Assembly (NCBI GenBank): GCA_902787305.1
Contig: CADAFS010000003.1
Location: forward strand, 7,119 to 71,118
Direction: 5' to 3'
DNA: 64,000 nucleotides
Origin: an uncultured Pseudomonadota bacterium
GTDB lineage: Bacteria > Pseudomonadota > Alphaproteobacteria > Rs-D84
This document shows, piece after piece, positions 923 to 53,725 of the stretch. Below the pieces are notes generated by a model that was not told where the DNA came from, did not search any database, and saw only the letters and a list, made by a program, of their open reading frames with translations. Positions within the stretch are counted from its first letter, which is position 1. Each line of letters opens with the position of its first letter. A program made the translations under genes and the position numbers.

Positions 923-949
923 GTGTTAGTGTAAGTGGTTAGTGTAAGT
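923..949 (+). repeat. GTWAGT hexa/heptamer array
   Basis: GTGTTAGTGTAAGTGGTTAGTGTAAGT. Stop codons at 927, 932, 940 and 945 cover all three frames. Confidence 0.8.
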
Positions 950-1013: not shown

Positions 1014-3578
1014 TTATCTTTCTGCTTGTGTACAAGACACTGAACTACCAACTGCAATACATTTATTACAGACCCTATTATAAACATATCCAGAGTCACA
1101 TACACAGCTTTTTCCGTCTGATGTGACATTTCCCGACCCGTGTTCCGACGGGCATTGTTGGCAATCGTATGGACGGTTTTCTGTGGTTGGAACGTAACCT
1201 GTATTACATTGACAATGACCATCTAAAATGTTGCCACTTAAATCTGATTTTTCTGTTGAGTTTGTTGGGCATATTTTACAACTTGTCCAACTCTGTGCCC
1301 AGAAAGTATTACCGTTGCACTTACAATGGCCGTAAAATTCGGGATTTGCCGAAGTATCCTCTGATGCACCTTCGGGACATGCCTGTTGTGTGCATGTACC
1401 ATTGGACGAATACAATCCACCATCCGGGCATACCGGCAAACAGGCACCATTAAACACAGTATAATCACTTTGGCACTGACACATCTTGTTAACCCAACCA
1501 TGCACTTTATTGTTTGGAGAAATTGCGTGTGTGCCACGGACATACGTTGAATTATCCGGACAGAGTAACGATTGATAGAATATCTCTGAAATGTTTTCTA
1601 TGCACGTGTTATCGTTGGGACAACCGGAACTGGTGCTGTCCGCCGAAAACACCGCGTATCCACATGTAAGGGCGACATTACGGCATGCGCCGCGCATAAT
1701 GTTATATACACTGGATGCCGCCGCCGTCGCCGACCAAGAATTTATCTGTGAAACCTGGTTATTATAACATGTCGCAATATCGTTTAGGCATGTTGACGCA
1801 TAATCCGCCACAATTTGATGCTGGGCGGCACTTATATTCACCATCGCACGTTGGACATAGTTCACAACAATATCGTTATATGATTTATATGCGCCACGGT
1901 CATCATATGTATATGCGCGACATTTATCCAAAACCGGTCGGCAAAGCCCCTCGGCGGTCGCGTCCGCCCTTGTTCCGATTTTGCTTAGCAGGTATTTTAT
2001 CACGCAACGCCCGTCATTTGCGTTATTTCCCGAACAGGTTGGGTCATCCAACGATGTCATACTGTTTGCCTGTTGCAATTTTGTGCTGTTGATTTCGGCA
2101 TTGCTGTAATTTGCCATAAATTTTTGGATATTGTTTATATTTTGCCCCAAAACAACATTGCCATTTTCATCGATATACTTCTTGGTCGGGTCGATACATT
2201 TGAAATAGTTATCGCCACACACCATATCGTCCTTCATGCAATTTTCAAGTGCGCCAATACAACCAATCGCGTCATAGGTATTTTGATTTTGCAACACCGC
2301 AAGTCGCGCCTTTTGCAGCATACGCGTTGCACTGCGCACATTGGACACCAATGTTTCGTTCATCTTGGTTAAACCTTGTTCGTACGCGATGCAATCTTTA
2401 TCAATTGCCAAATCATAGTTGCCGGTAATTTGGTCACCTGTTGCGCCAACATCGCGACATTGTTTTATCACGGTTTCACAGCGACGTTTTGCGGCCTTGT
2501 ACAATTCGCCCCCGCGCAGGTTTGAAAAACCATTATTTGCCCCAGACAGGAAATCCAAACTAAACATATCAGACAAATCTTCGGATGAAAAATCTAAATC
2601 TATGTCAAGCAATCCATATGAATCAACCGCATACGACGAAGAACTTGTTGTTTTTGGGTCTTTTATCATTTGTTCGATTCTTGACAGCAACATGCGATTT
2701 TCCGTTGTATCGGTGATATCGGTCATGGCCTCTTCGGCCTCGGTTGCGGACATAATCGCGGTAATTTCATCGGCGGAAAGCCCCACATAGCGGATATTTT
2801 GCGCAATTTCGTTTAATTTGGTATTTGCATCTTTGACGGCTTCTTCGACCGCGACATATTTGGCAAGGTTCGCTGAACACGAACACCGCTTTTGATTCGC
2901 ATCAATCACCGCACAGAATTGGTCCATACAATCATTATATTGGTCTTGGCAAGATTTATTCAATGCCGCCTTTTGTTCCAATTGTTCTTTGGCCTGGGCG
3001 ATTGATGCGGGGTCCAGTTTTTCTTCTTTGCGGGTTTGAACTGTCGCGATACGCGGGCTAAGGTTGCCAATTTCCGATGATATATTTGACCCGGTCTGGG
3101 CGCCGGATTCCAATATCGCGCGACCACCAACCTCTGCGGTGGATGGACGCAGTGTAAGTCCCATACGCCGCACCGCCGGATTCGCGTTTATACTTGCGGC
3201 CTCGGTGCGCTGTGACCGACCAACATTGTGGACGGCGGCGTCCAGATTGTTGCGCGCTGAATCTTTATTCGTTTGCGAACGGGTCACGGAAACCACGCGA
3301 CCCGCCGAACGCGTCGTCGTTTGGACTTCGCGTGTTGTATCTGTTGGAATTGTGCGAACGATATTGCGTGTGATTGCACCACGGTCGGGACTTTCATTTG
3401 TTGTCCGCGTTGCAGAAACCGCGCGAACCGGCGCAACCGACCTTTCTTCGGTCGCGGTCGCGTTGTCGCCACCCATTGTCGCATTTGTTCCGGGTATAAT
3501 ACGCGACGGCACCGCCGCCACGCAAACCGTGGTCGGCGCATACAGCGCAATTAAAAATCCAAGTGTAAAAACCCTCAT
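1014..3578 (-). CDS. Secreted cysteine-rich protein (854 aa), function unknown: signal peptide, Arg/Thr/Ser-rich linker, Cys-rich core, C-terminal CxC...CxxC (EGF/furin-like) repeats
   Basis: Long uninterrupted ORF. N-terminal MRVFTLGFLIALYAPTTVCVAA signal-like segment. Paralogous to 16316..18373 (shared CMDxxC...RCxC motif). Confidence 0.75.
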   Translation of the reverse strand: MRVFTLGFLIALYAPTTVCVAAVPSRIIPGTNATMGGDNATATEERSVAPVRAVSATRTTNESPDRGAITRNIVRTIPTDTTREVQTTTRSAGRVVSVTRSQTNKDSARNNLDAAVHNVGRSQRTEAASINANPAVRRMGLTLRPSTAEVGGRAILESGAQTGSNISSEIGNLSPRIATVQTRKEEKLDPASIAQAKEQLEQKAALNKSCQDQYNDCMDQFCAVIDANQKRCSCSANLAKYVAVEEAVKDANTKLNEIAQNIRYVGLSADEITAIMSATEAEEAMTDITDTTENRMLLSRIEQMIKDPKTTSSSSYAVDSYGLLDIDLDFSSEDLSDMFSLDFLSGANNGFSNLRGGELYKAAKRRCETVIKQCRDVGATGDQITGNYDLAIDKDCIAYEQGLTKMNETLVSNVRSATRMLQKARLAVLQNQNTYDAIGCIGALENCMKDDMVCGDNYFKCIDPTKKYIDENGNVVLGQNINNIQKFMANYSNAEINSTKLQQANSMTSLDDPTCSGNNANDGRCVIKYLLSKIGTRADATAEGLCRPVLDKCRAYTYDDRGAYKSYNDIVVNYVQRAMVNISAAQHQIVADYASTCLNDIATCYNNQVSQINSWSATAAASSVYNIMRGACRNVALTCGYAVFSADSTSSGCPNDNTCIENISEIFYQSLLCPDNSTYVRGTHAISPNNKVHGWVNKMCQCQSDYTVFNGACLPVCPDGGLYSSNGTCTQQACPEGASEDTSANPEFYGHCKCNGNTFWAQSWTSCKICPTNSTEKSDLSGNILDGHCQCNTGYVPTTENRPYDCQQCPSEHGSGNVTSDGKSCVCDSGYVYNRVCNKCIAVGSSVSCTQAER

Positions 3579-3626: not shown

Positions 3627-3657
3627 GTGGGGGTGGTGGTTGATGTAAGTGGGTAGT
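3627..3657 (+). repeat. Degenerate GTWAGT array
   Basis: GTGGGGGTGGTGGTTGATGTAAGTGGGTAGT. Confidence 0.5.
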
Positions 3658-3698
3658 ATATTCTGAAATGAATTTGTAATTGTAAAATTGTTCCAAAT

Positions 3699-3717
3699 AC
3701 CACTAACCACTTACACT
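3699..3717 (-). repeat. GTWAGT array (complement orientation) overlapping the murG stop
   Basis: ACCACTAACCACTTACACT on the + strand. Confidence 0.65.
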
Positions 3718-4762
3718 ATTTACAAACCGTATCTGCAATCATTTCAACGGCGGTGTTTTTCACCAATGATTTCTTTGCCATTTTTTCAAGGCGTGCTTCG
3801 TTTTCAAACAATTCGGACAATGTCGCCGACAACCATTTTTCGGTAAATTTCTTTTGTTCTATGGCAAAACCGCCACCCAATTTTTCATAGTTTGCCGCGT
3901 TTGCCGCCTGGTCTGGATTGATGGCCAATGGCACCAATATCGCCGGCCGACCAATGGTCATAAGTTCGACGACGGTGCTAGCCCCGCTGCGCCCGATGAC
4001 AAGATCCGAATCCGCAATCGCGCCCGCCATATCACGGATAAACGACAACACATTTGCGTGAATTTTGTTGTCGGCATAGAATTTTTGCAAACGCGCAACA
4101 TTTTCCGGTCGCGTTTGATGCGTGACGAAAATCTTTTTGTTGCCCATCGCCGCAACCGCACGCGGCACAACATCGTCCAAGATTTGCGCGCCCAATGACC
4201 CGCCCGTTACCAACAGGTGTGATTTCTTTGGCAACGGTGCACCCGCGCGTTCGATAAAATCACGCCGCACCGGCAGTCCCGTATAAACCACGCGCACATT
4301 TTTATTCTTTGGAATTCCGGAAACATCATGGAAACTGGTCATCAATGTTTTAACCCAACGCATGGTAAAACGATTTGCGCGCCCGATTGCGCCGTTCTGT
4401 TCGTGCAGGTATGTTGGAATTTTCCACACATGCGCCGCGAAAACCGCCGGCACAGATGCATAGCCGCCAAACGCAACAACCCGCGCGGGCCGCGTAAATG
4501 CGAATCGCAAAACCAATGCGATGGCCGAAACGCCAATTTTAAACAACGCCCACATTTGATGTATGCGACTTTTTGCGCCAACGCCCGCCGCCCAAATGTG
4601 AACGCGTTTTGCACCGCGCGGTGCGCCGTCCGCAACCATTTTACGAACGCGCCCATCACAGGAAATAATTATTTTATGTCCGCGTGCGGCAATTTCGTCC
4701 GCCACCGCAAGTGCCGGAAAAACATGTCCGCCCGTGCCGCCCGTTGCAATCCAGATTTTCAT
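3716..4762 (-). CDS. murG: UDP-GlcNAc:lipid I N-acetylglucosaminyltransferase MurG
   Basis: N-terminal ATGGTGGHVFPALAV motif, 348 aa, directly downstream of ftsW. Confidence 0.93.
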   Translation of the reverse strand: MKIWIATGGTGGHVFPALAVADEIAARGHKIIISCDGRVRKMVADGAPRGAKRVHIWAAGVGAKSRIHQMWALFKIGVSAIALVLRFAFTRPARVVAFGGYASVPAVFAAHVWKIPTYLHEQNGAIGRANRFTMRWVKTLMTSFHDVSGIPKNKNVRVVYTGLPVRRDFIERAGAPLPKKSHLLVTGGSLGAQILDDVVPRAVAAMGNKKIFVTHQTRPENVARLQKFYADNKIHANVLSFIRDMAGAIADSDLVIGRSGASTVVELMTIGRPAILVPLAINPDQAANAANYEKLGGGFAIEQKKFTEKWLSATLSELFENEARLEKMAKKSLVKNTAVEMIADTVCK

Positions 4763-9242: not shown

Positions 9243-10184
9243 ATGAGAAAAATAATTATTGCAATTTGCGGAATAATCTTGACCAGCGGTGCACGCGCGA
9301 CGGTAGAAAATGTATCGGATGCGATTAAAAGTGTGTGGCATAAGGACTCTGCTGGGTACAAAACGCAGATAACAATCAATAACGGCCTTTATGACATAAT
9401 CAAAACAAGTAAAACACCCGATTGGGAATTTAATTATGTTGATATCACAGCGGCAACAAAAATATACAAAAATGGTGCGAAGTTTTGTCATATGTCTTTG
9501 CAACATAATTATGGCAACTGGAGAGTATTTATAGCGCCAGAATCTTGTCAGACTATTTGTAAAGAAGGGTACTACGGGGAAGATTGCGAATCTACAACAC
9601 CAATTAATGTTGATTGTGAAATTGATTTGACAAACAAATTTGATAAGAATCCATGGCAAGAAACAACCATAGATGTTGTTAACAGTGGCGATAAAGATTC
9701 TTCGAAAGGCGATTATTATGTTGTGGTTTTACAAGTTGATAATGTTGATTCAAATTCCGTGACGGTTAAACCTGTATCCTATATAGGGAGCAAAGAGGCG
9801 CGCCAAAGAACAGATATAAATAAGATTATTGTATGGGATGAAGCCGTCTTACTGTGCGCACCAGGATATGAATTAGAGAATAACATATGCGTTAGAAAAA
9901 ATTGTATTGTCAATTCGACCCCTCCTTCGCCCGAATCAGAATGTCCCACAACTCGTAAACAAGGCATGAACGCCAACGGAGATTGTGAACAATGTGACGA
10001 TGGCAAAATGTTTGATAAGAAAAAAAAGAAATGTGCGAAGGAAAAACCGATAAACGCACACCAATTAGTACATGGTATCCAAAGACTGTTTGATTGTTGG
10101 CGGGAAGTTGGTCCTGCCGCATATAAAGAATGTGTCACATGTCCCGGTGGTTGGGAAAAAGACCAAAAACATTGTTACATATAA
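9243..10184 (+). CDS. Secreted Cys-rich protein with EGF-like motif (313 aa), function unknown
   Basis: Signal-like N-terminus MRKIIIAICGIILTSGARA. CQTICKEGYYGEDC and several CxxC pairs. A+T-rich relative to neighbours. Confidence 0.65.
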   Translation: MRKIIIAICGIILTSGARATVENVSDAIKSVWHKDSAGYKTQITINNGLYDIIKTSKTPDWEFNYVDITAATKIYKNGAKFCHMSLQHNYGNWRVFIAPESCQTICKEGYYGEDCESTTPINVDCEIDLTNKFDKNPWQETTIDVVNSGDKDSSKGDYYVVVLQVDNVDSNSVTVKPVSYIGSKEARQRTDINKIIVWDEAVLLCAPGYELENNICVRKNCIVNSTPPSPESECPTTRKQGMNANGDCEQCDDGKMFDKKKKKCAKEKPINAHQLVHGIQRLFDCWREVGPAAYKECVTCPGGWEKDQKHCYI

Positions 10185-10635
10185 TAGCGTTATTCCTACA
10201 AAAATTCCCGTCATACCGCCGTATCAGGCCCCGCGCAAAACTTTGATTTGCGTGGGTGATTTCAGGCGGTATTTTGTCGTCACCGTTGAACCCACCAGAT
10301 ACCGCGCTTCCACGATATAGTGTTGATTGCGATTGTAATCGCCATGCCGGCGTATACCGACACGGACAGCAAAACCGTCACATCAAAATCGATATCAACA
10401 ACACTTTCGGATACCAGTATCGATAACAATTTGCCAACGGTCGGTACAGTAAATATGAACACTGTTGTGACGTATACCGGCACGCCTGTGACGGTTTATT
10501 ATCCACTGGCGACACCTGTGGAAGAAGATTGGCCGGACACGACATATAACACAAGTGTTTATATCCCACAAAATCAATCGTCACAGAATAATTGATGGCG
10601 TGACGGGAAAAACACCGGTGCGAAAGCGCCTGTTC

Positions 10636-10718
10636 CACTTACACCAAGCCAGGGCAAAGCCCTGGCGCAGTCTCGGCACCGCACCCAGCGGTGACGGATA
10701 ATCACTTACACTAACACT
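10636..10718 (+). repeat. Double-hairpin REP-like element, copy A, with flanking CACTAAC/CACTTAC units
   Basis: CACCAAGCCAGGGCAAAGCCCTGGCGCAGTCTCGG + CACCGC-N-GCGGTG hairpin + GACGGATAA. Confidence 0.8.
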
Positions 10719-13524: not shown

Positions 13525-14193
13525 ATGGTAAAAACAAATACCCAGGCCGGGGCATCGGCAACGAAAAAATATGTTAAATTCGGTATCGTGGCGGTTGTTG
13601 TAATCGCGGTTGCGGTTATTGGATTGTTCGCGGTAAAATCTTTTTCAGGTAAAACGGTTAGTGCGGAATCCGCAATTGATGGCATATCGAGTGAGGCCGT
13701 ATCCGGTGGTGACCTGCGTATGGCGGTGATTCGTATGGATGCAATTCAATCGGATGCCAAGGCGTTGCAAGACCTGCGTAAACAACGCGAATCGTATGAA
13801 GAAAAATTGCGTAGTGAACTTGAAAAAGAACAAAAAGAATTAGAAAAAGAAAAAGAAGAAATTGAAAAATCCCAAGACGTCCTTTCCCAGGAAGCATTAC
13901 AACGTCGCGTTGTTGAATACCAAGGCAAGGTCACAAAATTGCAACGTGATTTGACAGAACGCGCACAATCGGTTGATGCCGCGTTCCAAAAGGCGTTGGT
14001 TGAAATCCAAGAAAAACACCTTGACCCGATTATCGAAGCGATAATTGCGAAAAAGAATTTGTCTTTGGTAATTGATGGTCGTTTTGCGCGGACGGGTGCA
14101 AATGTTGAAAACCTTGATATCACGGCGGATGTTATCAATGCATTGGATAAAAAGGTTTCAACCGTTAAAATGGACACACCGAAAGGATTCTAG
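13525..14193 (+). CDS. skp: OmpH/Skp-like periplasmic chaperone
   Basis: N-terminal anchor plus long Lys/Glu-rich coiled region typical of OmpH, located upstream of lpxD-fabZ. The stop TAG is the first unit of a GTWAGT array. Confidence 0.75.
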   Translation: MVKTNTQAGASATKKYVKFGIVAVVVIAVAVIGLFAVKSFSGKTVSAESAIDGISSEAVSGGDLRMAVIRMDAIQSDAKALQDLRKQRESYEEKLRSELEKEQKELEKEKEEIEKSQDVLSQEALQRRVVEYQGKVTKLQRDLTERAQSVDAAFQKALVEIQEKHLDPIIEAIIAKKNLSLVIDGRFARTGANVENLDITADVINALDKKVSTVKMDTPKGF

Positions 14194-14221
14194 TGGTTAG
14201 TGCAAGTAGTTAGTGTTAGTG
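14191..14221 (+). repeat. GTWAGT array starting at the skp stop codon
   Basis: TAGTGGTTAGTGCAAGTAGTTAGTGTTAGTG. Confidence 0.8.
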
Positions 14222-14245
14222 AACCGGCGATATCATCGCCGGTTT
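14222..14245 (+). terminator. Hairpin after skp
   Basis: AACCGGCGAT-ATC-ATCGCCGGTT followed by a T-rich tract. Confidence 0.65.
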
Positions 14246-14255
14246 ATATTTTTCA

Positions 14256-14284
14256 TTGCAAGTTAGTTTTTGTTTTACTATAAT
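14256..14284 (+). promoter_or_regulatory. Sigma70-type promoter of cassette copy 1 (TTGCAA-17 nt-TATAAT)
   Basis: Hexamers read directly. Same promoter in copy 3 and a near-identical one in copy 2. Confidence 0.7.
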
Positions 14285-14290
14285 CACACT

Positions 14291-14469
14291 TGCGATGGCG
14301 GGTTGCCGTTGCTGGGTCCTAGAAAACCCACCGAAGTAAAAAAAACTCCACCAGGTTGGAGGGTTGCGAATATATTGAATAAGCAACACTGTTTACTTCG
14401 CAGTTTTCTAGCCTCCAACCGTTTGTATTTTTGCAAATGGTTTTTTTATTTCATCAAAAAGGAAAAACA
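14291..14469 (+). promoter_or_regulatory. Structured 5' leader RNA of cassette copy 1 (candidate cis-regulatory RNA)
   Basis: Three stems with compensatory changes relative to copy 3. Ends in the terminator at 14417..14447 before the SD. Confidence 0.6.
14417..14447 (+). terminator. Intrinsic terminator inside the cassette leader (copy 1)
   Basis: AACCGTTTG...CAAATGGTT stem followed by T7, 22 nt before the ORF start. Confidence 0.7.
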
Positions 14470-14697
14470 ATGTTTGAAACAGTTATTACGGATAACCCAT
14501 TACCACAAACGGTGATAAAGGCGCTTTATCGTTATTATGAACAGCCACAAAATTCTATGACGGTTGGTGAAATGTATTTGTTGTTAAAACTGGTTCTATC
14601 GAAAATGGAAGATGAATTTGAAAAAATGGGATTCGATATAGAAAAAGAATTAGCCGATATACAAATACCCACCACCCCCACTAACACTAATCACTAA
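14470..14697 (+). CDS. Small conserved protein, cassette copy 1 (75 aa), unknown function
   Basis: Three paralogs in the window. 12 synonymous vs 3 non-synonymous differences against copy 3 over 61 codons (hand count). SD AAGGA upstream. The C-terminal TNTNH is encoded by the flanking array. Confidence 0.7.
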   Translation: MFETVITDNPLPQTVIKALYRYYEQPQNSMTVGEMYLLLKLVLSKMEDEFEKMGFDIEKELADIQIPTTPTNTNH

Positions 14698-14715
14698 CAC
14701 TTACACTAACCACTT
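14678..14715 (-). repeat. GTWAGT array (complement orientation) closing cassette copy 1
   Basis: CCACTAACACTAATCACTAACACTTACACTAACCACTT. Confidence 0.8.
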
Positions 14716-14763
14716 ATATCTAATTTCCCTTTTCTTTTTTAATTTTTTTATTATAATGCGGGC

Positions 14764-16315: not shown

Positions 16316-18373
16316 TTAATTTCCATTTGATTCTGGTTTAGTCCAACTACGGATACACCCATCACCCGGACACCCAAGGGCATCACGCAGACACTGTTCG
16401 CGAAAATCTGCGGAATTTCCACTACCATTTGGCATTGGCGGGTTGCTGTGATTTGACGAGGCACCATTTAATATCTCGTTCAACGTCACAATATTACGAC
16501 AAGTGTTTAATGTATAATCACTTGCGTTCCATGTACAAGAACCATCCGGTTTGTCAATAATCGCACGAAATTGTGCATACGACGGATTGCAAATCATATC
16601 TTGATAGCAATGCGGAACATTTGCAATCTGTGCGCAATATGTTTTAATACGCGCATCTGGCCAATTTTCATTTGACTGCGCCTGGGTTTCATAACAATCC
16701 CAAAGTTCACTTATACATTCGTTAAAGTTCGTCCCCGCGGCCGTTGCCTTGGACAAGACCTCGTCGCGTTCGTTATTGTAAAACTCTAACCGTTTTTGTT
16801 GCAACGCCTGTTGTGCGGCAACCTTTTGATATGCAATTTTTTGTGCGGTCGCCTTTAACTGTTCACCGTACAAATCGCAATCCGCGTTCGCATCCAGCAA
16901 GTATTTTTGCATCACACTGCGCCGCGCATCCGCAACCGGCCCGCGCAGGTTTTCATATGGGTCGTTCGACGTGCTGTATCCAAAGCAAGACGCATTCGCG
17001 GCGGTGCCGATATTGCTGCGTTCGTTTAATTTTACATCGCCCGACGAAGAAATCGTCACTTTGCTGTTGTAATTAAACGGACAAGACGATGTTGCACCGT
17101 TCGCGCAACGGCCACCCGACGGCGGTGTGCCACAACCCTCATATATTCCGTTAAAGCACGAATCAAGAACGCGTGCACAAACATTATTATGTGCATAGCG
17201 GAACAAATCGTATCCCCATGTTTCCGCAAGTGTATCGCGTGTTTCTTCATTGATTATTGACGCGGTCGAACCGCCGATTCCATTCAAAATTGTTGTCACA
17301 TTTTCCATTGCTTGGAACACAGAATCCGTGTTATCAGCCAGAATCGTATCGGTGTTCGCCTTTACTTCATCCGCCCACGCCGAAAGCGATGCCAAAATAT
17401 CAGACCCCGCCCCATCCAAATTGGCGACATCAAATCCGTAAACACTTTCGTTCGTGCAATATGCCGGTGCAACCGAATAAGAACATGCCCCTGATGTGAA
17501 AAGCCCATGTTCCGCACACCAATCGCCAAACTTATTGGAATTTGTTCCGTTGTCACTTGCTTCCCGCCATGAAACGCAATTCATAACCCTTTCTGCATCG
17601 GTCAGTTCGAATGCCGCACTAACTTCTTTGCCCTTGTTTGCAATCAGCAATGCCAACTGTCCGGAAATTTTAATCAATTCTTCATTCGCGGAATTCAGTG
17701 CGTTTTCCGCCTCTGCAAATGCCTTGACCCGGCCGGCGCATGCGCAACGGCGTTGTGCCTCGTTCCGGGCGGTGCAAATTTCGTCCATGCACGTATAGTA
17801 CGATTCCAAACAGTTGCTATACGCGTCCGCGGAAATAAGCCCCGTCGAAGAATCGACGATATTGCTGTAATTCCCGGTGTAAAGTTTGCTGTTTAAATAT
17901 GTGTAATATGTCCCGTTAACGGTTTTTGTTCCACGAATTGCATCGCCCTGTAAAGACACGCGTGCGGGATTTGTCGTTGCGGTGCGTGCGCGAACGGTGC
18001 GTGTCGGCGCGGTCGCACGCGAAGAACGGCGCGCCAATTCACGCGAAACGACACCGCGTGCGGTCGCACCACGTGCAATATCGGTTGTTGGGCGTTGCAC
18101 AACATTGCGTGTTGTGGTCGTTGTGACCGCCCCGGTTGTTGGCCGCGGCGCGGTTGCGCGAACATTACGGCCCGTGCTGTTACGCGGACTTTGCCGCCCC
18201 AGTGTTAAACCATCGTTCGCGGTTTCGTCATTCCCAAGCATCGGTCCAATCGGGTCGGCCAAAACAACCCGCATCGATAAAAATGTTGAACAAACCAAAA
18301 ATGCACCCATCAACAAAAACATAGTGCCCAATGCATTTTTGCCAAATTTTTGCAAAGAATTTTTTTTCATCAA
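16316..18373 (-). CDS. Secreted cysteine-rich protein (685 aa), paralog of 1014..3578
   Basis: Signal/anchor-like N-terminus, Arg/Thr-rich linker, NCLESYYTCMDEICTARNEAQRRCACA motif matching SCQDQYNDCMDQFCAVIDANQKRCSCS of the 854-aa protein. Confidence 0.75.
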   Translation of the reverse strand: MMKKNSLQKFGKNALGTMFLLMGAFLVCSTFLSMRVVLADPIGPMLGNDETANDGLTLGRQSPRNSTGRNVRATAPRPTTGAVTTTTTRNVVQRPTTDIARGATARGVVSRELARRSSRATAPTRTVRARTATTNPARVSLQGDAIRGTKTVNGTYYTYLNSKLYTGNYSNIVDSSTGLISADAYSNCLESYYTCMDEICTARNEAQRRCACAGRVKAFAEAENALNSANEELIKISGQLALLIANKGKEVSAAFELTDAERVMNCVSWREASDNGTNSNKFGDWCAEHGLFTSGACSYSVAPAYCTNESVYGFDVANLDGAGSDILASLSAWADEVKANTDTILADNTDSVFQAMENVTTILNGIGGSTASIINEETRDTLAETWGYDLFRYAHNNVCARVLDSCFNGIYEGCGTPPSGGRCANGATSSCPFNYNSKVTISSSGDVKLNERSNIGTAANASCFGYSTSNDPYENLRGPVADARRSVMQKYLLDANADCDLYGEQLKATAQKIAYQKVAAQQALQQKRLEFYNNERDEVLSKATAAGTNFNECISELWDCYETQAQSNENWPDARIKTYCAQIANVPHCYQDMICNPSYAQFRAIIDKPDGSCTWNASDYTLNTCRNIVTLNEILNGASSNHSNPPMPNGSGNSADFREQCLRDALGCPGDGCIRSWTKPESNGN

Positions 18374-20074: not shown

Positions 20075-20743
20075 ATGCAGATTTACAATAAAAAAGTTCT
20101 TTATGTTATCGCCGGTGCAAATGGATCGGGTAAAACCACCCTTGCCCAGGAAATCGCCAATGAAAATCCGGATATAGAATTCCTTAATCCCGATAATATT
20201 CAACGAGAAAATAAAGTTGATGCCAAAAAGGCTGCGCGCATGGTTTTGTCAAAGATGAAGCAATTATTTTTTACGCACGATTCGTTTATTTACGAAACAA
20301 CACTTGCGGGAAAAAATAATTTTGTAAAACAAGCGCATGATAACGGATATAAGATAATATTTGTCTATGTATTGCTATCATCGGTTGAACAAAATATTGC
20401 ACGGGTTAAACAACGGGTTGCAATGGGCGGGCACGATGTTCCGGAAAAAGATATTCGGCGCCGTTATTATCGAAGTTTGTTTAATATTGATTCTGTCCAG
20501 GCACAATCTGACCAATGGGAAATTTATTACAACGGCGAAGATAAATATGAACTTATTGCACGTGGCATTGGTAATCAAATAAATGTTATCAATAATCCGC
20601 GTTATAAAAACTTTATTAAACACCGTGGTGAAATTTTATCCGAACATTTATTGGAGCTTGGGCGATGTGCTGCAACCAAGGCGCGCCTTGCCGCAGAAGA
20701 AGCGGGTGTGCCAATCGCTGATATAAAAAATATCATTCGTTAA
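20075..20743 (+). CDS. Zeta-toxin-like P-loop kinase (COG4185-type)
   Basis: Walker A GANGSGKTT and FIYETTLAG motif. A+T-rich. Start moved to MQIYNKK. Confidence 0.65.
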   Translation: MQIYNKKVLYVIAGANGSGKTTLAQEIANENPDIEFLNPDNIQRENKVDAKKAARMVLSKMKQLFFTHDSFIYETTLAGKNNFVKQAHDNGYKIIFVYVLLSSVEQNIARVKQRVAMGGHDVPEKDIRRRYYRSLFNIDSVQAQSDQWEIYYNGEDKYELIARGIGNQINVINNPRYKNFIKHRGEILSEHLLELGRCAATKARLAAEEAGVPIADIKNIIR

Positions 20744-33820: not shown

Positions 33821-34348
33821 ATGCCAGTTGCAAAAAAGAAAACATCAGCAAAGAAAACAACAACAGCGAGAAAATCCGTGAAACGTGCGCCGGCGCGGCG
33901 TGCGGTCGTGCGTGAAGTTCCGGTTCAAACACCGCGGCGTCGCATGGTCGGGCCGCTTTCGGCGATTGCAAGTTTTTGGCGTCGATATTTTGATTTTGTT
34001 GGGCGTTCAACGCGTGCGGAATTTTGGTTTGGATATTTGTTTGCGTACATTGTGAATTTCTGTTTTGCGTATTTTATCGGCGGAACGGTGTCGTTGGTGG
34101 TTAGTGCGATTTTATTCATCCCGGTGCTGGCGCTTTCGGTTCGCCGCTTCCGTGATGCGGGAATTTCGGTGTGGCTTTATCTTGTGCCGGTGTTGTTGGT
34201 TTATTTGATACCGGTGATTCGCGGTTCGGCATGGTATACGATGATATCTTTTGGTTATGTGTCGTCGGGTATGGCATTGTACGCGTTGTTCTTTATCATC
34301 GATACGATATTCAATCTCGTGGTTGCATGTTTGCCAAGTAAGAAATAA
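33821..34348 (+). CDS. DUF805-family inner membrane protein with basic N-terminal extension
   Basis: GRSTRAEFWFGYLF...LALSVRRFRDAG motif typical of DUF805 (YhaH-like). Confidence 0.75.
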   Translation: MPVAKKKTSAKKTTTARKSVKRAPARRAVVREVPVQTPRRRMVGPLSAIASFWRRYFDFVGRSTRAEFWFGYLFAYIVNFCFAYFIGGTVSLVVSAILFIPVLALSVRRFRDAGISVWLYLVPVLLVYLIPVIRGSAWYTMISFGYVSSGMALYALFFIIDTIFNLVVACLPSKK

Positions 34349-34437
34349 GTGTTATCCGTCTTTGTCCATCACCGCAAAGCGGTGCCGTGACTACATCGAA
34401 ACTGCGCCAGGGCTTTGCCCTGGCTTGGTGTTAGTGC
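34349..34437 (-). repeat. Double-hairpin REP-like element, copy B
   Basis: Reverse orientation of the consensus: TTATCCGTC...CACCGCAAAGCGGTG...GCGCCAGGGCTTTGCCCTGGCTTGGTG. Confidence 0.8.
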
Positions 34438-34473: not shown

Positions 34474-34500
34474 ACTAATCACTAACCACTCTTACACTAA
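34474..34500 (-). repeat. GTWAGT array (complement orientation) encoding the queH C-terminus
   Basis: ACTAATCACTAACCACTCTTACACTAA. Confidence 0.75.
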
Positions 34501-35017: not shown

Positions 35018-35488
35018 TTATCGTGCGTTTTCTGTTTTCTTATTGAACAATTCAACCAGACCGACCGGCGGTTTATTCATTTTAACTGGCCAAATTTGAT
35101 TCAGTGTTTCTCTTTCTACAAATACATCATCGTCTAAATAATGCCAACGAACAAAACAATGCCCGGGAACACCGTCCAACATAACTGGTTTTTTTTCTGT
35201 TTTTTTCAAATCAAAATTAAATGTATTTTTATATTGGTCTTTCAAAAAGGCATCAATATCGTTCGGATAAATCAATTTATCGCCAACCAAAATTTTATAT
35301 TCATCTGTCACCTTTTTATCAATAACGCCTTCTATTACAATTTTATATGGTATATTCATATGTAAAGGATATCTGCGCGTATATTCCGCCAAATCTTCAA
35401 TTGAAGAAATTTGTTTATATGGACCATTATGACACTGGGTGCATGGCCCCGTGTGACGCAAATAAAATTCAACATTTTCATTATTCAT
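35018..35488 (-). CDS. Hypothetical protein (156 aa)
   Basis: ORF with AAGGA SD before the Met at 35488. A+T-rich, no recognised family. Confidence 0.5.
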   Translation of the reverse strand: MNNENVEFYLRHTGPCTQCHNGPYKQISSIEDLAEYTRRYPLHMNIPYKIVIEGVIDKKVTDEYKILVGDKLIYPNDIDAFLKDQYKNTFNFDLKKTEKKPVMLDGVPGHCFVRWHYLDDDVFVERETLNQIWPVKMNKPPVGLVELFNKKTENAR

Positions 35489-35516
35489 TTTTGTATCCTT
35501 TTTTAGTGCACCTCTC

Positions 35517-35537
35517 TCACTAACCACTAATCACTAT
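35517..35537 (-). repeat. Short GTWAGT array (complement orientation) containing the metG stop
   Basis: TCACTAACCACTAATCACTAT. Confidence 0.6.
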
Positions 35538-37146
35538 CTAACTCAATCCGGCTAAACAAATTTTCCGGTACGGTGAATTTTTCGCCGTTCGCAATTCTGT
35601 GTTCATATTGCGCCGGCCAAGACAAATCATGTTTGGTTTCGAATATATTTTGAATCCGCCCCGCCGCGTCCGGAATAATTGGTGCCGACACACGTGCAAA
35701 CAAATCAATCAATTGGAAGCATTCGTTTAACACCGCCGCCGCGCCCGCCATATCACCGTTCTTAACCAATGTCCATGGTTCTTTCGCGGTCATATATTCG
35801 TTCGCAATTCCATAAATATCGCGCAACGCAACAATAGATTTGCGAAATTCGCATGCGTCCAGTGCCGCGGTTAGTTCGGAAATTTTTTCGTTCACTTTGC
35901 CAACCAATTCCGCATCCGCCGCGCCCGCCGCCGGCACAGTATCACCAAAATTCTTGTTTGATAATTTGCACACACGCGACACAAAGTTGCCAAGCAAACC
36001 GTTCAAATCTTTATTCACAATTTCCGCAAACCGCGTCATTGTAAAGTCCGTATCGTCACTTTCAGGTGCGGACGCCAACAACGCATACCGCCAACAGTCC
36101 GATGGAGCAATGGAAAGTGCCGCATCAAGGAAAATTCCGTTGCCCGTGGACTTTGAAATTTTTGCACCATTAAAGTTCATAAAATTCAGTGCCTTTAATA
36201 CATCGACCGTTTTCCAATTATCATTGACGGCGATTTCTTGGGCCGGGAAAAATACGGCATGAAAGGACACGTTATCTTTGCCCATAAATTGCGTATAGTG
36301 GCATTCGGGATTTTTCCACCACGACGCCCAATCAGGATTCGCAATTTGTGAAATCGAAACATAACCCCACGGCGCATCAAACCATACATAGAAAACTTTA
36401 TTTTCATACCCTGGCTTATTTACCGGAATCCCCCATTTCAAATCGCGCGTAATTGGTGTGTCGTGCAACCCTTCGTCCAACCATTTGTTTGCAATTGCTG
36501 TTGCGGTTTTGGGCCAACCGATACGCGAATTTACCCATGCGCGCAGTTTATCTTGCACCGCACTCAACTTAAAATAAAGGTGTTTTGTTTCGCGCATTTC
36601 AACGGGCGAATCCGGGTCAATCGCGCTATGTGGGTTTATCAAATCCGCCGGGTCCAACGATGCGCCACACTTTTCACATTCGTTTCCATATGCGTGTTCA
36701 TATCCGCAACGTGGACAAGTGCCAATTACATATCGGTCGGCCAAGAATTTTTTTTCGTTCACCGAATATGGTTGCATTGATACTTTTTCTTCTATCATGC
36801 CCTGTTCTTCCAACCGATTGAACAATTCGTGAATCAATTTTTCTTGGGCATCCGTGTGCGTACGACCATAGTTATCAAAGGATAAATTAAAATCTTTTAC
36901 AACCTGTAAGTGTTTTGCGCGATATTTTTCAACATAATCTTCAACCGACATATTTTCGCGCGCCGCGCCAATTTCACTTGTGGTGCCGTGTTCGTCCGAC
37001 CCACCAATATAAAGGACATCACGGCCACACGCGCGACAAAAACGCGCATACACATCAGACGGCAGCAAGCACCCAATCAAATGCCCAATATGCAGGTTAT
37101 TATTCACATATGGTAATGCCGAAGTAATAAGATATTTTTTGCCCAT
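35527..37146 (-). CDS. metG: Methionyl-tRNA synthetase
   Basis: LPYVNNNLHIGH (HIGH), KISKSTGN (KMSKS), Zn knuckle CPRCG...CEKCG. Start at 37146 (SD AAGGA); a terminator hairpin occupies the upstream extension of the ORF. Confidence 0.93.
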   Translation of the reverse strand: MGKKYLITSALPYVNNNLHIGHLIGCLLPSDVYARFCRACGRDVLYIGGSDEHGTTSEIGAARENMSVEDYVEKYRAKHLQVVKDFNLSFDNYGRTHTDAQEKLIHELFNRLEEQGMIEEKVSMQPYSVNEKKFLADRYVIGTCPRCGYEHAYGNECEKCGASLDPADLINPHSAIDPDSPVEMRETKHLYFKLSAVQDKLRAWVNSRIGWPKTATAIANKWLDEGLHDTPITRDLKWGIPVNKPGYENKVFYVWFDAPWGYVSISQIANPDWASWWKNPECHYTQFMGKDNVSFHAVFFPAQEIAVNDNWKTVDVLKALNFMNFNGAKISKSTGNGIFLDAALSIAPSDCWRYALLASAPESDDTDFTMTRFAEIVNKDLNGLLGNFVSRVCKLSNKNFGDTVPAAGAADAELVGKVNEKISELTAALDACEFRKSIVALRDIYGIANEYMTAKEPWTLVKNGDMAGAAAVLNECFQLIDLFARVSAPIIPDAAGRIQNIFETKHDLSWPAQYEHRIANGEKFTVPENLFSRIELDSD

Positions 37147-37162
37147 TGTTATTTTCCTTTTT

Positions 37163-37189
37163 ATAAAAAATGACGCCAAACGGGGCGTC
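37163..37189 (-). terminator. Terminator-like hairpin between tRNA-Val and the metG start codon
   Basis: GACGCC-CCGTTT-GGCGTC followed by ATTTTTT on the complement, ending about 17 nt before the metG ATG. Confidence 0.6.
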
Positions 37190-37811: not shown

Positions 37812-37841
37812 AAAAAATAAAAACGGGCGCCCCCGCGCCCG
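37812..37841 (-). terminator. Terminator downstream of mreB and REP copy C
   Basis: CGGGCGC-GGGG-GCGCCCG followed by TTTTTATTTTTT on the complement. Confidence 0.75.
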
Positions 37842-37877
37842 CACCCGTCGCGGCACGCCGCGCCGCGGTCGTGACGG

Positions 37878-39488
<1,611 letters not shown>

Positions 39489-41598: not shown

Positions 41599-41660
41599 TC
41601 CGTCTCCGCTTCGCTACGCCGAGACTGCGCCAGGGCTTTGCCCTGGCTTGGTGTAAGTGT
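41596..41660 (-). repeat. Double-hairpin REP-like element, copy D (short)
   Basis: GATCCGTCTCCGCTTCGCTACGCCGAGACTGCGCCAGGGCTTTGCCCTGGCTTGGTGTAAGTG. Begins at the accC stop codon. Confidence 0.75.
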
Positions 41661-41755: not shown

Positions 41756-42775
41756 ATGGAGAAACGCCAAAATCTTATACTGGAATTTATAAAAAAGCAC
41801 CCAAATACCAACAGTGGAGCAATTGTTGAATTTATATCACAACAAATGCCGGGAAAAAGTTCCCGACCGACCGTGTTACGTGATATTGATGCGCTGATTG
41901 CCGATGGTAAAGTCGTAAAATTTGGTTCCGCGCGTGCAACAACATATGCCGTGGTTATTGATATAGAAAATTATTTTGCCATTGATCCGGACAAACGGGT
42001 ATTAAAAACAGAGTATTTCAACTTTGATATTTGGGGCGAAATGCACGATTTGTTCACCGCAAAAGAATTATCCGAATTGGACAAAATTAACGATACATAC
42101 AGGAAAAATAAATCGGAATTATCCGCCACCGCATTAAAGAAAGAAATTGAACGCCTTACCATAGAATTTGCATGGAAATCATCTAAAATTGAAGGTAATA
42201 CCTATACTTTACTTGATACAGAACGTTTGATACGGGACAAAGAAGAAGCGACGGGAAAAAAGAAAGACGAAGCAATAATGATTTTGAATCACAAAGTTGC
42301 ATTGGACTTTATTTTTGCCAATCCCGATTTGTTTCAACATATTACCATTGCAAAAATAGAACATATCCACAAATTGCTGACCGATGGTTTAGAAATTAGC
42401 GGTGGCGTTCGTCAAAGACGGGTTGGTATAACCGGCACAAATTACAGACCAATCGATAACAGACAACAAATTATGGAAGCGTTGGAACGTCTGGTAAAAC
42501 TGATAAACGAATTGAAACATCCGCTGGAAAAAGCATTGGCGGCGGTTTTAATGATTTCATATATTCAACCGTTCGAAGATGGCAACAAACGTACTGCACG
42601 AACAATAGGTAATGCATTATTGTTGGCGTTTGACTATTGCCCATTGTCGTATCGCAGTGCCGATGAAATAGAATACAAGAAAGGTATGATATTATTCTAT
42701 GAACAGAATGATTTCGCATATTTCAAAAAAATATTCATCGACCAGTTCAAACAAGGAATTGAAAAGTACTTTTGA
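41756..42775 (+). CDS. Fic-family protein with N-terminal wHTH; Fic motif reads QPFEDGNKRTAR (His replaced by Gln)
   Basis: Fic core motif and inhibitory-type SSKIEG motif. Gln codon CAA at 42566..42568. Confidence 0.8.
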   Translation: MEKRQNLILEFIKKHPNTNSGAIVEFISQQMPGKSSRPTVLRDIDALIADGKVVKFGSARATTYAVVIDIENYFAIDPDKRVLKTEYFNFDIWGEMHDLFTAKELSELDKINDTYRKNKSELSATALKKEIERLTIEFAWKSSKIEGNTYTLLDTERLIRDKEEATGKKKDEAIMILNHKVALDFIFANPDLFQHITIAKIEHIHKLLTDGLEISGGVRQRRVGITGTNYRPIDNRQQIMEALERLVKLINELKHPLEKALAAVLMISYIQPFEDGNKRTARTIGNALLLAFDYCPLSYRSADEIEYKKGMILFYEQNDFAYFKKIFIDQFKQGIEKYF

Positions 42776-43365: not shown

Positions 43366-43440
43366 GGTACTAGCCACTAACACCAAGCCGGGGCAAAGCC
43401 CTGGCGCAGTCTCGCCGTAGCCGCAGGCGAAGGCGGATTA
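43366..43440 (+). repeat. Double-hairpin REP-like element, copy E
   Basis: CACCAAGCCGGGGCAAAGCCCTGGCGCAGTCTCGCCGTAGCCGCAGGCGAAGGCGGATTA. The last 3 nt are the sspB stop (complement). Confidence 0.75.
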
Positions 43441-52258: not shown

Positions 52259-52831
52259 ATGAATAGTAAAGAAAAATTTGCACGTTATGCGGAAATTTTA
52301 CGCGATTGGAATTCGCGTATGAATCTTGTGGCGCGCGGCACCTTGGGTGACCTGGAAAACCGGCACTTTGCCGATTCGGCGCAATTGGCGGATGTTTTAC
52401 CGGCTGACGTAAATGTAATTGATTTTGGTTCAGGTGCGGGGTTCCCGGGCGTGGTTTTGGCGATTTTGGGTTGGAATGTGACCTGTATCGAATCGATTGG
52501 CAAAAAAGTTTCTTTTCTAAATGAATTAAAAACGAAACTTGAACTTGATAATTTAACAATTTATCACGGACGTGTTGAAAACTTTTTCCCGGCTTTTTTG
52601 AACAAAAATGATAAAAAAGCCGGGAATTTTGTTATAACTGCACGTGCTTTTGCACCACTTGTTAAGATTTTAGATTATGTTCGTGGGATAAATTGCCGGC
52701 TTTTTTTACTAAAAGGCCGGGAAATTGAACGCGAAATTGCCGACGCAAAAAAGAAATATCGGTTTGATTACGATTTAATACCGTCCAAGACCGGTGACGG
52801 GTTTATAATAATTGTGCGATTCGGTGGATAA
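52259..52831 (+). CDS. rsmG: 16S rRNA (guanine527-N7)-methyltransferase RsmG (GidB)
   Basis: DFGSGAGFPGVVLAI SAM motif, upstream of parA-parB. Confidence 0.88.
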   Translation: MNSKEKFARYAEILRDWNSRMNLVARGTLGDLENRHFADSAQLADVLPADVNVIDFGSGAGFPGVVLAILGWNVTCIESIGKKVSFLNELKTKLELDNLTIYHGRVENFFPAFLNKNDKKAGNFVITARAFAPLVKILDYVRGINCRLFLLKGREIEREIADAKKKYRFDYDLIPSKTGDGFIIIVRFGG

Positions 52832-52845
52832 TTTCATGTGAAACA
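52830..52845. promoter_or_regulatory. parS-like site (AATTTCATGTGAAACA, 13/16 to TGTTTCACGTGAAACA)
   Basis: Read directly. Lies between the rsmG stop and the parA promoter. Confidence 0.45.
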
Positions 52846-52895
52846 ACAAATATCGTGTTGATTTTATTGTGTTTTTTAATTTAATCTTTTGTTTC

Positions 52896-52924
52896 TTGAC
52901 TGTGTCAAATTTCGCGTATATACT
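52896..52924 (+). promoter_or_regulatory. Putative parAB promoter (TTGACT-17-TATACT)
   Basis: Hexamers read directly. Confidence 0.55.
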
Positions 52925-52951
52925 CTAAAACAATAAAAGGAAGGTATAAAA

Positions 52952-53725
52952 ATGACGGAAATTATCGCGTTTGCAAATCAAAAAGGTGGTGTTGGAAAAA
53001 CAACGACTGCAATAAACCTTGGGGCGTCGCTGGCCGCAATTAAAAAGCGTGTTTTGCTTATAGATTTGGATTCCCAAGGTAATGCCGGGACGGGACTTGG
53101 ATTTGTTCGTTCTTCGCATTCACAAAGTGTTTATGATGTGATTATGGGGCTGTCCAGTGCGGCGGAAAACATACTTTCGACCGCGGTTCCGGGTATGCAT
53201 ATTTTGCCGTCGACCCAGGCACTTGCCGGGGCCGAAGTTGAATTGTTGGATATGGAAAACAAGGAATATCGCCTGCGCGATGCGTTGCGGCCGATAATGG
53301 AACATTATGATTATATCTTGCTGGATTGCCCACCGAATTTGGGTTATATCACGTTAAACGCGTTAACGACCGCAAACCACGTAATTATCCCATTACAATG
53401 CGAATTTTTCGCGTTGGAGGGGGTTTTGCATCTTATAAATACAATCAAAGGCATTCAGCAAAAATGGAACCCGAATTTAGATGTCTTGGGTGTTTTGCTA
53501 ACTATGTACGACCGGCGGTATGGTATGACACGCGATGTCGAAGATAATGTCCGTGAAACGTTTGGTGGTTTGGTGTTCAAAACGGTCGTGCCGCGCAATG
53601 TCCGTGTGGCCGAGGCGCCAAGTCACGGCAAACCGGCGTTGTTTTATGACTTTAATTCCAACGGTGCCCAGGCGTACTTGCGCTTTGCGACCGAAGTTAT
53701 TCAAAAAATAGAAAAGGGGGAATAA
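52952..53725 (+). CDS. parA: Chromosome partitioning ATPase ParA
   Basis: Deviant Walker A NQKGGVGKTTTAINL, 257 aa. Confidence 0.93.
   Translation: MTEIIAFANQKGGVGKTTTAINLGASLAAIKKRVLLIDLDSQGNAGTGLGFVRSSHSQSVYDVIMGLSSAAENILSTAVPGMHILPSTQALAGAEVELLDMENKEYRLRDALRPIMEHYDYILLDCPPNLGYITLNALTTANHVIIPLQCEFFALEGVLHLINTIKGIQQKWNPNLDVLGVLLTMYDRRYGMTRDVEDNVRETFGGLVFKTVVPRNVRVAEAPSHGKPALFYDFNSNGAQAYLRFATEVIQKIEKGE

Follow-up and report, generated by a model that had tools for sequence, protein, structure and literature searches.

The DNA just past the stop codon of ppdK (positions 923–949; GTGTTAGTGTAAGTGGTTAGTGTAAGT) raises the question of what a short, stop-bearing tandem repeat is doing at the end of a gene, and whether ending reading frames is what it is for. 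The window considered here, a 64,000-nt stretch that is part of a 75-kb metagenome contig, has ordinary alphaproteobacterial housekeeping content (dnaX with DUF3646, murG, lpxD, mreB, parAB and mutS, among others). An earlier note on its sequence had listed ten such arrays and taken them for all-frame stop modules.

Repeat unit, census and lineage distribution

In each array, a unit of 6 or 7 nt, namely G(G/A)TTAGT, GTAAGT or GCAAGT, is repeated in a short tandem run. All ten arrays of the earlier list proved to be in place when checked against the sequence of the 64-kb window, with the caveat that the one at 3627–3657 is degenerate (Table 1). A regular-expression search for at least two tandem units returned 12 arrays in the window, compared with 0.065 on average and never more than 2 in 200 second-order Markov simulations; short arrays at 10699–10715, 37878–37892 and 43369–43383 had been absent from the list.

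Beyond the window, one genome per species was scanned with the exact pattern GTGGTTAGTGYAAGTN{1,2}TTAGT, yielding at least 117 stretches, where we estimate about four chance matches. Among the matches listed, 115 of 117 fell in Candidatus Enterousia or in unnamed (alpha)proteobacterial MAGs of gut origin (ruminants and other animals), the exceptions being one Bacillus and one ‘Pseudomonadales’ MAG; that is, among these matches the motif is almost confined to gut MAGs of Candidatus Enterousia (order Rs-D84). Genomes of this order measure <1 Mb, and repeats go unmentioned in the paper on this group (PMC12306168). Searches of the literature by literal sequence and by keyword found no published description, and the repeat class appears to be previously undescribed, in line with the earlier note's failure to recognise it.

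The window and the 117 loci (0.97 Mb) together hold 242 arrays of 2–12 units (250 before removal of the duplicate loci L001–L004). GGTTAGT is the commonest unit (345 copies), followed by GTAAGT (172), GTTAGT (112), GCAAGT (53), GATTAGT (51) and others; the AGT of the unit is set by the regular expression and nearly always followed by the G of the next unit, and the flanking positions vary. The modal length of four units is inflated by a search pattern that demanded three. Most loci were chosen by presence of the array pattern and the source MAGs are fragmentary; the main statistics, rerun on the 116 arrays outside the search pattern, gave the same picture. In some arrays, 13-nt higher-order repeats that reach 12 units suggest slippage.

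Relatives with 75–78% Skp identity use the same units as the window. At the skp 3′ end, more distant relatives carry other heptamers: in L137 TAGTCAA/TAGTCTT and in L141 AATGAAC, each with an inverted partner (around a hairpin in L137), and in L140 a GTGGTTC array devoid of stop codons. Judging by these three short contigs at a single locus, heptamer arms may have stood at gene ends before the GGTTAGT unit arose. As a more distant relative (L147; Skp 68% identical) keeps only degenerate traces, array abundance is lineage-dependent.

Placement and orientation relative to genes

Genes beyond the window were called with a simple home-made codon-score ORF caller. With 84% of the sequence coding, called genes contain just 8 of the 242 arrays; seven of these are chance-like two-unit matches, and one sits in the last ten codons of a gene. 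Because each unit brings a TAG or TAA (on the other strand, a TAA) and repeats with a period not divisible by three, arrays cannot sit inside genes, and an ORF that enters an array stops within a few codons.

Of the arrays of at least three units, 59 lie between tandem genes and are co-oriented with them, 33 lie between tandem genes in the opposite orientation, 57 between convergent and 10 between divergent genes. Past the stop of a co-oriented upstream gene, the median distance to the start of the GT arm is 28 nt (≤5 nt in 37%), whereas a median of 123 nt separates the far end of the array from the 3′ end of a converging gene. Relative to the preceding gene, arrays had been described as almost always GT-oriented. 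Such a bias is real, with 44 GT-sense versus 19 AC-sense single arrays in tandem intergenic regions (p = 0.002), but ‘almost always’ overstates what is not a rule; where tandem regions hold paired arrays, the order is GT then AC in 19 cases and AC then GT in none. Both the preference for 3′ ends and the orientation bias, which the earlier note had proposed to count genome-wide, were seen over 0.97 Mb. Unpaired single arrays outnumber pairs.

Table 1. Arrays and associated elements in the 64,000-nt window.
Feature	Position	Strand	Remarks
GT-array, 4 units (GTTAGT GTAAGT GGTTAGT GTAAGT)	923–949	+	8 nt past ppdK stop; terminator hairpin 950–976 directly after
Degenerate GT arm of palindromic module, canonical only at 3645–3657	3627–3657	+	Upstream of 854-aa gene
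Decayed type B hairpin core between arms	3658–3698		In relatives tctggaataat...attattccaga
GT arm; TAG 3716–3718 is the murG stop	3699–3717	-	L089 orthologue has TAA and no array
REP1 hairpin element in array units: GTTAGTGTAAGTGATTA / core 10645–10698 / GTGTAAGTGG	10635–10715	-	
GT-array; first TAG is the skp stop	14191–14221	+	Followed by terminator hairpin 14222–14245
Cassette within module: terminator, promoter TTGCAA-17-TATAAT (14256–14284), leader RNA, ORF	14222–14677	+	
Parts of that cassette			Leader RNA's own terminator 14417–14442; 75-aa ORF 14471–14697
Inverted AC arm, 6 units, plus strand G-free	14678–14717	-	Gives cassette ORF tail ...TNTNH and stop
Degenerate units with DUF805 stop (TAA 34346), REP1 core 34355–34427, flanking unit GTGTTAGTG	34338–34436	+	
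GT-array; queH stop 34475–34477	34474–34500	-	Plus ~4 C-terminal residues (VVSD)
GT-array; metG stop 35527–35529	35517–35537	-	Where the C-terminal domain is missing
mreB-stop unit (TAG 37972–37974), REP1 core 37893–37965, units GTGTAAGTGATTAGT (37878–37892)	37878–37977	-	
REP2 and terminator	37823–37877		After the mreB REP1/array element
Half REP1 (second hairpin), then unit GTGTAAGTG	41613–41659	+	After accC
REP1 core 43384–43437 flush with sspB TAA stop, then units GTGTTAGTGGCTAGT	43369–43437	-	
GT-array, 4 units, convergent pair	55581–55610	-	Between terminator-like hairpins 55563–55582 and 55613–55636
GT-array 57986–58012, interrupted by REP1 core 58013–58085; GTGTTAGTG resumes	57986–58094	+	After infC terminator
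Second cassette copy, opposite orientation: promoter 58523–58495, leader RNA, 69-aa ORF 58089–58298	58095–58546	-	
GT arm closing second cassette	58547–58591	-	Upstream of xseB

Stop codons and protein C-termini

Direct reading of the array behind ppdK bore out that its TAG/TAA codons at 927, 932, 940 and 945 fall in three frames. Extended to the class, the claim that the GT orientation stops all three frames is true of 142 of 180 arrays of at least three units (79%) and not of the rest; on the AC strand, all three frames are stopped in 39%. As the AC orientation carries TAA too, a module stops both strands. Within 20 nt of an array, gene stops are TAG in 47 cases, TAA in 32 and TGA in 7, against 75, 536 and 61 elsewhere, which corresponds to a TAG share of 55% versus 11% (odds ratio 9.6, p = 4e-19). 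Stop-codon reassignment was rejected, since one and the same orthologous stop can be TGA, TAG or TAA.

Where an array has a co-oriented upstream gene, it supplies that gene's stop codon in about a third of cases (44 of 147). No codon is added in 19 of these 44 (typically ‘...aaa TAG tggttagtg’), and up to 29 gain one to six array-encoded codons; about 20 genes end exactly on the first TAG of the array, and in the commonest arrangement, TAG TGG TTA GTG TAA, an in-frame back-up TAA lies four codons after the first TAG. The array-borne stops reported earlier for skp (14191), murG, queH, metG, mreB, the DUF805 gene and the cassette ORF ending in TNTNH are all correctly located.

The related suggestion that arrays had replaced C-termini fared differently from gene to gene when orthologues were compared. 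Skp, MurG and MreB are unchanged. Skp ends in ...GF in 120 of 120 relatives and in ...PKGF in 119, with or without an array, its stop being an array TAG, a TAA plus array, or a TAA plus plain terminator and no array. MurG ends in ...VCK both in the window (array, TAG) and in L089 (TAA and an ordinary terminator, no array), and MreB in ...QTMY in three genomes with three different downstream arrangements; the ppdK products end in K, KC, K and KN. QueH, on the other hand, is altered, ending in ...EFSVRVVSD in the window versus ...EFSIRKV in the array-free L061, so that about four residues (VVSD) are array-derived and not the last seven, as had been thought. In L017, metG continues into a C-terminal tRNA-binding domain of ~115 aa and queH starts 2 nt later, while the window and L061 versions end at the linker, inside an array, with an unrelated ORF next; metG is thus the strong case, having lost a whole C-terminal domain at an array.

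Could the arrays, then, have been selected as all-frame translational stop modules that end and insulate reading frames, as the earlier note had it? Three-frame stopping, the strong enrichment of TAG, the genes that end exactly on the first array TAG with a back-up TAA behind it, and the cassette ORFs (see below) that end in arms as well are what one would expect. However, many arrays lie past a terminator or away from any ORF end, many are AC-oriented, with three frames stopped far less often on that strand, or form the distal arm of a pair, the related GTGGTTC array lacks stops, and array-free orthologues end at the same residue. Moreover, the same pattern is expected of any gene-excluded sequence that is pressed against genes by deletion. 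While the stop statistics themselves stand, we consider it very unlikely that stopping translation is the primary role.

Arm–hairpin–arm modules and terminators

Neighbouring arrays face each other (GT> <GT) in 49 cases, take the reverse arrangement in 3 and are in direct orientation in 29, with gaps clustering at 38–58 nt and 336–548 nt. Arrays are the arms of palindromic intergenic modules at gene 3′ ends, composed of a GT-array, a hairpin core and an inverted AC array; that oppositely oriented pairs bracket the cassette and several terminator hairpins had been observed before and is borne out. The pairs are no mere by-product of convergent genes each with its own array, as 19 of the 34 short pairs lie between tandem genes (convergent 13, divergent 2; background 515 tandem, 134 convergent and 124 divergent). 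Between the arms, we found a G+C-rich hairpin (type A; tgtgcggcgaatgccgcaca), an A+T-rich hairpin (type B; decayed in the window), plain intrinsic terminators, REP-like elements and small cassettes.

Modules are predicted to fold with a median MFE of -41 kcal/mol (z -7), ~90% of the shorter arm pairing with the other arm. The arms of one module are not matched or co-evolving copies, their complementarity being equal to that of random arms: duplex energies are -1.14 versus -1.16 kcal/mol per nt, identities 0.73 versus 0.70, and the unit counts of partner arms are uncorrelated (r = -0.12), so the long stem is not visibly under selection. A canonical terminator adjoins 81 of 179 arrays (just upstream in 43, just downstream in 38), and behind the distal arm a T-run is found in 56% of tandem cases versus 18% in the background. 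The clade has Rho, the match being validated by 62% identity to the query over 418 residues; the AC arms, 15–45 nt in length, are short for a rut site.

The presence of a module varies between close relatives. For instance, macB and gpsA stop 1 nt apart in the window, whereas L057 has a ~100-nt arm–terminator–arm module at this site. Together with murG in L089 and skp in L130 and L134, the macB/gpsA site of the window counts among the module-free orthologous sites, and modules seem dispensable, as sites without one look viable. At murG (window versus L089), the module stands in place of a terminator and is not a simple insertion; neither there nor at ppdK (window versus L050) or skp (window versus L127) was a MITE-type target-site duplication found.

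Variable presence and viable array-free sites would suit a selfish or neutral repeat lacking a host function, i.e. the terminal inverted repeats or microsatellite-like debris of non-autonomous elements, which would survive only just past gene ends, where six-frame stops are harmless. The type A element (~150 nt, with outer inverted repeats TAAATAAAAGTTT... and array arms) exists in at least 11 near-identical copies, the higher-order repeats suggest slippage, and arrays coincide with synteny breakpoints. Yet neither the window nor the 1.05 Mb sampled contained a detectable transposase, RAYT or integrase, no target-site duplication was seen, and the two arms of a module resemble each other no more than random arms do. 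A density of about one array per 5 kb also sits uneasily with a <1 Mb genome that otherwise sheds spare DNA, as does a unit grammar that is uniform over ~40 species-level MAGs. We regard a selfish origin without function as a somewhat unlikely reading.

Members of the type A family hold a constant four units while their composition shifts, each change leading to another ‘legal’ unit. Such constancy would be in keeping with a binding platform, in which AGTG cores every 6–7 nt serve as sites of a lineage-specific multimeric RNA- or DNA-binding protein, the putative DNA binder being a nucleoid or termination factor. UAG or AAG triplets with 3–4-nt spacers recall HutP or TRAP sites, and Csp and KH proteins bind ~7 nt. 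The constant AGT between varying flanks (AGT being set by the regular expression), the modal length of four units (inflated by the three-unit search pattern) and the occurrence of TAGTCAA, AATGAAC and GTGGTTC at the same site in distant relatives, as expected under co-evolution with a binder, point in the same direction. On the other hand, no candidate protein emerged, array size spans 2–12 units, and both orientations and both sides of a terminator are used, no strand being consistently presented. A binding platform appears unlikely.

REP-like insertions and cassettes inside arrays

Within the array unit, two REP-like elements are each joined at a fixed point and in a fixed orientation. REP1 (core TCCGTC...GGCTTG) is invariably preceded by ...TTA and followed by GTGTWAGTG..., in the orientation of the GT strand, and REP2 (CCGTC...GCGACGGG) always follows ...TTAGT. 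The ppdK 3′ ends of the window and L050 are near-identical save for a 30-nt mini-REP located exactly between GGTTA and GTGTAAG, with no duplication, and a REP2 is inserted in the skp array of L127, whose Skp is 100% identical to that of the window. In being fixed, strand-specific and free of duplication, these junctions resemble insertions of the IS200/IS605 or RAYT type. Queries for IS200, IS608 and RAYT gave tblastn matches no better than E = 0.26 in the 1.05 Mb sampled, which covers a few per cent of each genome, and ten array-flanked genes checked for a mobilising enzyme returned only an aldolase, UDG, SPOR or no Pfam match.

Both copies of the window cassette comprise their own promoter, a structured leader RNA and a small ORF. 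In L042, L053 and L105, the cassette between the arms is a 23S-IVS-protein/four-helix-bundle gene (PF05635, E = 2.7e-35; TIGR02436, E = 1e-32), whose ORF end ...SLTTNTNH lies, with its stop, within the AC arm. Rfam at gathering thresholds reported nothing beyond two tRNAs in the whole window, matches in the cassette region being sub-threshold (sRNA-Xcc1, 29 bits versus 53).

Such insertions might indicate that, in this reduced genome, the arrays serve as docking sites for an undescribed system that captures and insulates cassettes. Hairpin elements would enter strand-specifically at TTA^GTG without duplication, and cassettes (IVS-protein genes, promoter/leader-RNA/ORF units and orphan genes) would be exchanged between inverted arms, with a putative HUH-type or other ssDNA recombinase at work; the arms, stopping translation in six frames and terminating transcription, would turn gene ends into ‘safe harbours’. 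We consider this system unlikely.

Relation to known repeat classes

Among described repeats, the nearest to the arrays are the TAACTGA heptamers and heptanucleotide simple-sequence repeats at large, with REP/BIME mosaics, MITEs and the 23S IVS elements behind them. Cyanobacterial STRR heptamers are one known class of heptamer tandem repeats. TAACTGA heptamer direct repeats form another, occurring in intergenic regions of marine Beggiatoaceae, cyanobacteria and some Bacteroidetes; their function is unknown and a protein-binding role has been suggested (MacGregor 2015, PMC4679880). TAACTGA arrays are homogeneous direct repeats, mostly located just upstream of start codons, with only one inverted case reported, and the same paper cites heptanucleotide ‘long simple sequence repeats’ (LSSRs; Mrazek 2007, as cited in PMC4679880). 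What the Enterousia arrays share with LSSR, STRR and TAACTGA repeats are tandem copies of 5–11 nt beyond chance and a strong intergenic bias. TAACTGA repeats, in particular, likewise come as lineage-restricted tandem arrays of a 7-nt unit (2–6, rarely more), hundreds per genome and almost all intergenic, with stop codons in the unit, so that overlap with ORF ends is limited to a few codons. Enterousia arrays, however, mix 6- and 7-nt unit variants rather than repeating a single unit faithfully, host REP-like insertions and cassettes, supply working stops, and lie at 3′ ends, with 49 inverted pairs around hairpins. As they are heterogeneous and placed at 3′ ends, they are not of the TAACTGA type.

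REP/BIME mosaics of enterobacteria and REPIN/RAYT systems are extragenic, located at 3′ ends, built of alternating stem-loop motifs, linked to termination and to mRNA 3′ ends, and variable between strains. The modules resemble them as 3′-end mosaics in alternating orientation that fold into stem-loops, but their tandem unit is a non-palindromic 6/7-mer and not a palindrome of 20–40 nt; the palindromic REP1 and REP2 are guests within the arrays, and no RAYT was found in 1.05 Mb. Because the array unit is not palindromic, the arrays are not REPs. MITEs, such as the Correia elements of Neisseria and the palindromic elements of Rickettsia, are small, multicopy, have inverted ends, can lie against or within gene ends and can alter C-termini. 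The arms are likewise inverted (49 to 3), type A has outer inverted repeats in addition, and modules vary between relatives, but there is no target duplication, arm length is variable and unmatched, and the same arms are common to many unrelated cores; unlike the Rickettsia elements, moreover, arrays cannot be read through. With no duplication and unmatched ends, they are not plain MITEs.

Intervening sequences of 23S rRNA sit in a helix of that rRNA, from which RNase III excises them. They can carry an S23p/four-helix-bundle ORF, for instance in Coxiella (PMC4990558). In the relatives, the PF05635/TIGR02436 genes lie exactly between two stem-capable inverted arms in a similar manner, but between protein-coding genes instead of in rRNA, and the window is free of rRNA. 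The core of integron attC sites is GTTRRRY/RYYYAAC, and DUS/USS form terminator-like inverted pairs after genes. The array units contain GTTAG/CTAAC and closely flank small ORFs, as in attC, and make inverted terminator-like pairs after genes, as do DUS/USS. Since the polarity is reversed (GTTAG...CTAAC in 49 of 52 opposed pairs) and no integrase was found among the window genes, the arrays are not attC sites; the window cassette, in addition, carries its own promoter. From DUS/USS they differ in that arrays of at least two units are absent from coding sequence (the few intragenic matches described above aside). Taken together, the arrays are related to heptamer tandem repeats and to REP/BIME-like mosaics but depart from what defines each of these classes.

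A candidate module at transcript ends

The explanation that we prefer, at a probability of roughly one in two, is that of a lineage-specific mosaic repeat of the form arm–hairpin–arm, which would serve as a 3′-end or insulator module and as a landing pad for hairpins, the donation of stop codons being a by-product of compaction. Arrays are tolerated outside genes only, since they cannot be read through. A compacting genome would delete the spacer between an ORF and the module, and because such deletional pressure brings the array flush with the ORF, its TAG takes over as the stop; in this way, about a third of the abutting genes would have come to use the first TAG of the arm as their working stop. 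Occasionally, a C-terminus would be altered (queH) or truncated (metG), and stop donation would be a consequence of the arrangement rather than its purpose.

From these sequence patterns, we infer a function of the module at the transcript end. There, ribosomes would be released, and a long stem would form from arms and core, in many cases with a T-run behind it. The AC arm, being G-free and C-rich, might provide Rho with a loading site on read-through or antisense RNA. Neighbouring genes and inserted cassettes would be insulated as a result. Speaking against this reading are partner arms that match no better than random ones, the excess of single arrays over pairs, the near-equal numbers of arrays before and after terminators, the viable module-free sites and the shortness of the AC arms. 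The uniformity of the unit would be kept by slippage, gene conversion and module mobility; turnover of this kind, as opposed to conservation in place, is indicated because arrangements differ at orthologous sites while the unit remains unchanged.

Implications

The repeat directly shapes gene ends in this lineage, through TAG stops (arrays account for ~39% of all TAG stops sampled), and some C-termini, and in one case it coincides with the loss of a tRNA-synthetase domain. If the description holds, the class would fill ~150–200 sites per <1 Mb genome, as extrapolated from 13 arrays per 64 kb. For Enterousia/Rs-D84 MAGs, arrays offer an annotation handle on gene ends, terminators and assembly breakpoints, and the system raises testable questions about a termination/insulation module, site-specific REP insertion, array-flanked cassettes and a new leader RNA. 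More generally, a stop-rich repeat and deletional compaction can jointly rewrite stop codons.

Array modules at gene-order breakpoints and gene 3′ ends

Comparison of the window with loci of close relatives (L113 and L050; three-digit L numbers denote other loci compared, mostly array-bearing contigs of related genomes) revealed differences in gene order, with the breakpoint located at an array module. The 854-aa gene has this module on its upstream side, placed after murG in the window and after the L27 terminator in L113 and L050; the orientation of the 685-aa gene relative to L21 is also inverted. Between the convergent macB-like and gpsA genes of the window (49733/49735) lies a 1-base spacer and no terminator. 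In relatives, this site holds an array–terminator–array module (L057) or arrays (L039, L068, L111).

The window metG lacks the C-terminal tRNA-binding domain present in the L017 orthologue, its place being taken by an array and a 169-aa ORF (35018–35527) for which no family match was found. At the skp 3′ end of more distant relatives, the heptamers are TAGTCAA/TAGTCTT, GTGGTTC and AATGAAC (L137, L140, L141), and an inverted partner array is present at two of these three sites.

The window further encodes large orphan ORFs, and several of the genes that arrays flank in relatives are likewise orphans. In many bacteria, the replication origin is close to the gidB(rsmG)–parA–parB cluster; GC skew across the 64-kb window tracks gene orientation, with no clear switch seen.

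Features of the window and of compared loci
Feature	Locus	Position	Strand	Remark
Orphan ORF, 854 aa	Window	1014–3578	−	No Pfam/NCBIfam match
Orphan ORF, 313 aa	Window	9243–10184	+	No Pfam/NCBIfam match
Orphan ORF, 685 aa	Window	16316–18373	−	No Pfam/NCBIfam match
Array module at synteny breakpoint	Window	3627–3717
	L113	4294–4436
	L050	1032–1057
Zeta-toxin/AAA_33-like gene	Window	20075–20743	+	Housekeeping neighbours
Fic-domain gene	Window	41756–42775	+	Housekeeping neighbours
metG region with array and 169-aa ORF	Window	35018–37179	−
gidB(rsmG)–parA–parB cluster	Window	52259–54611	+
Heptamer arrays differing from the window's, skp 3′ end	L137	1181–1312
	L140	1092–1118
	L141	693–784
23S-rRNA-IVS-protein/four-helix-bundle (Avd-like) gene	L042	6786–7189
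	L053	5640–6044
	L105	1718–2122
MITE-like element, ~150 nt	L005, L007, L032, L054, L066, L067, L098, L102, L105, L108
Leader RNA	Window	14290–14445	+	Sequence conservation
	Window	58325–58490	−	Sequence conservation
	L016, L038, L049, L059, L061, L063, L072, L075, L089, L101, L116, L127, L128			One copy each
	L088, L108			Two copies per locus

Genes and elements associated with inverted arms

Upstream of lepA in three loci, inverted arrays bracket 23S-IVS-protein/four-helix-bundle genes exactly, and the AC arm encodes their C-terminal residues (…TTNTNH*). Relatives also carry a MITE-like element, absent from the 64-kb window, that is composed of outer inverted repeats (TAAATAAAAGTTT), two array arms of four units and a hairpin (tgtgcggcgaatgccgcaca); its copies are near-identical, with variation in the middle units of the arms.

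A conserved leader RNA in the window and in loci of relatives

At both window sites and at the loci of relatives listed in the table, a sigma-70-like promoter is followed by a conserved leader RNA, which includes its own intrinsic terminator and precedes an RBS and an ORF. The ORFs vary, comprising small ORFs, HTH-like proteins and signal-peptide proteins. Within the RNA, the loop GAAUAUAUYGAAUAAG is invariant, and the P1 helix (GGUUGGAG/CUCCAACC) shows covariation to GUCAGGAG/CUCCUGAC. A search of Rfam returned no family at threshold, the top match being sRNA-Xcc1 (29.4 bits vs. 53 required). The leader RNA looks like an undescribed candidate riboswitch or attenuator.
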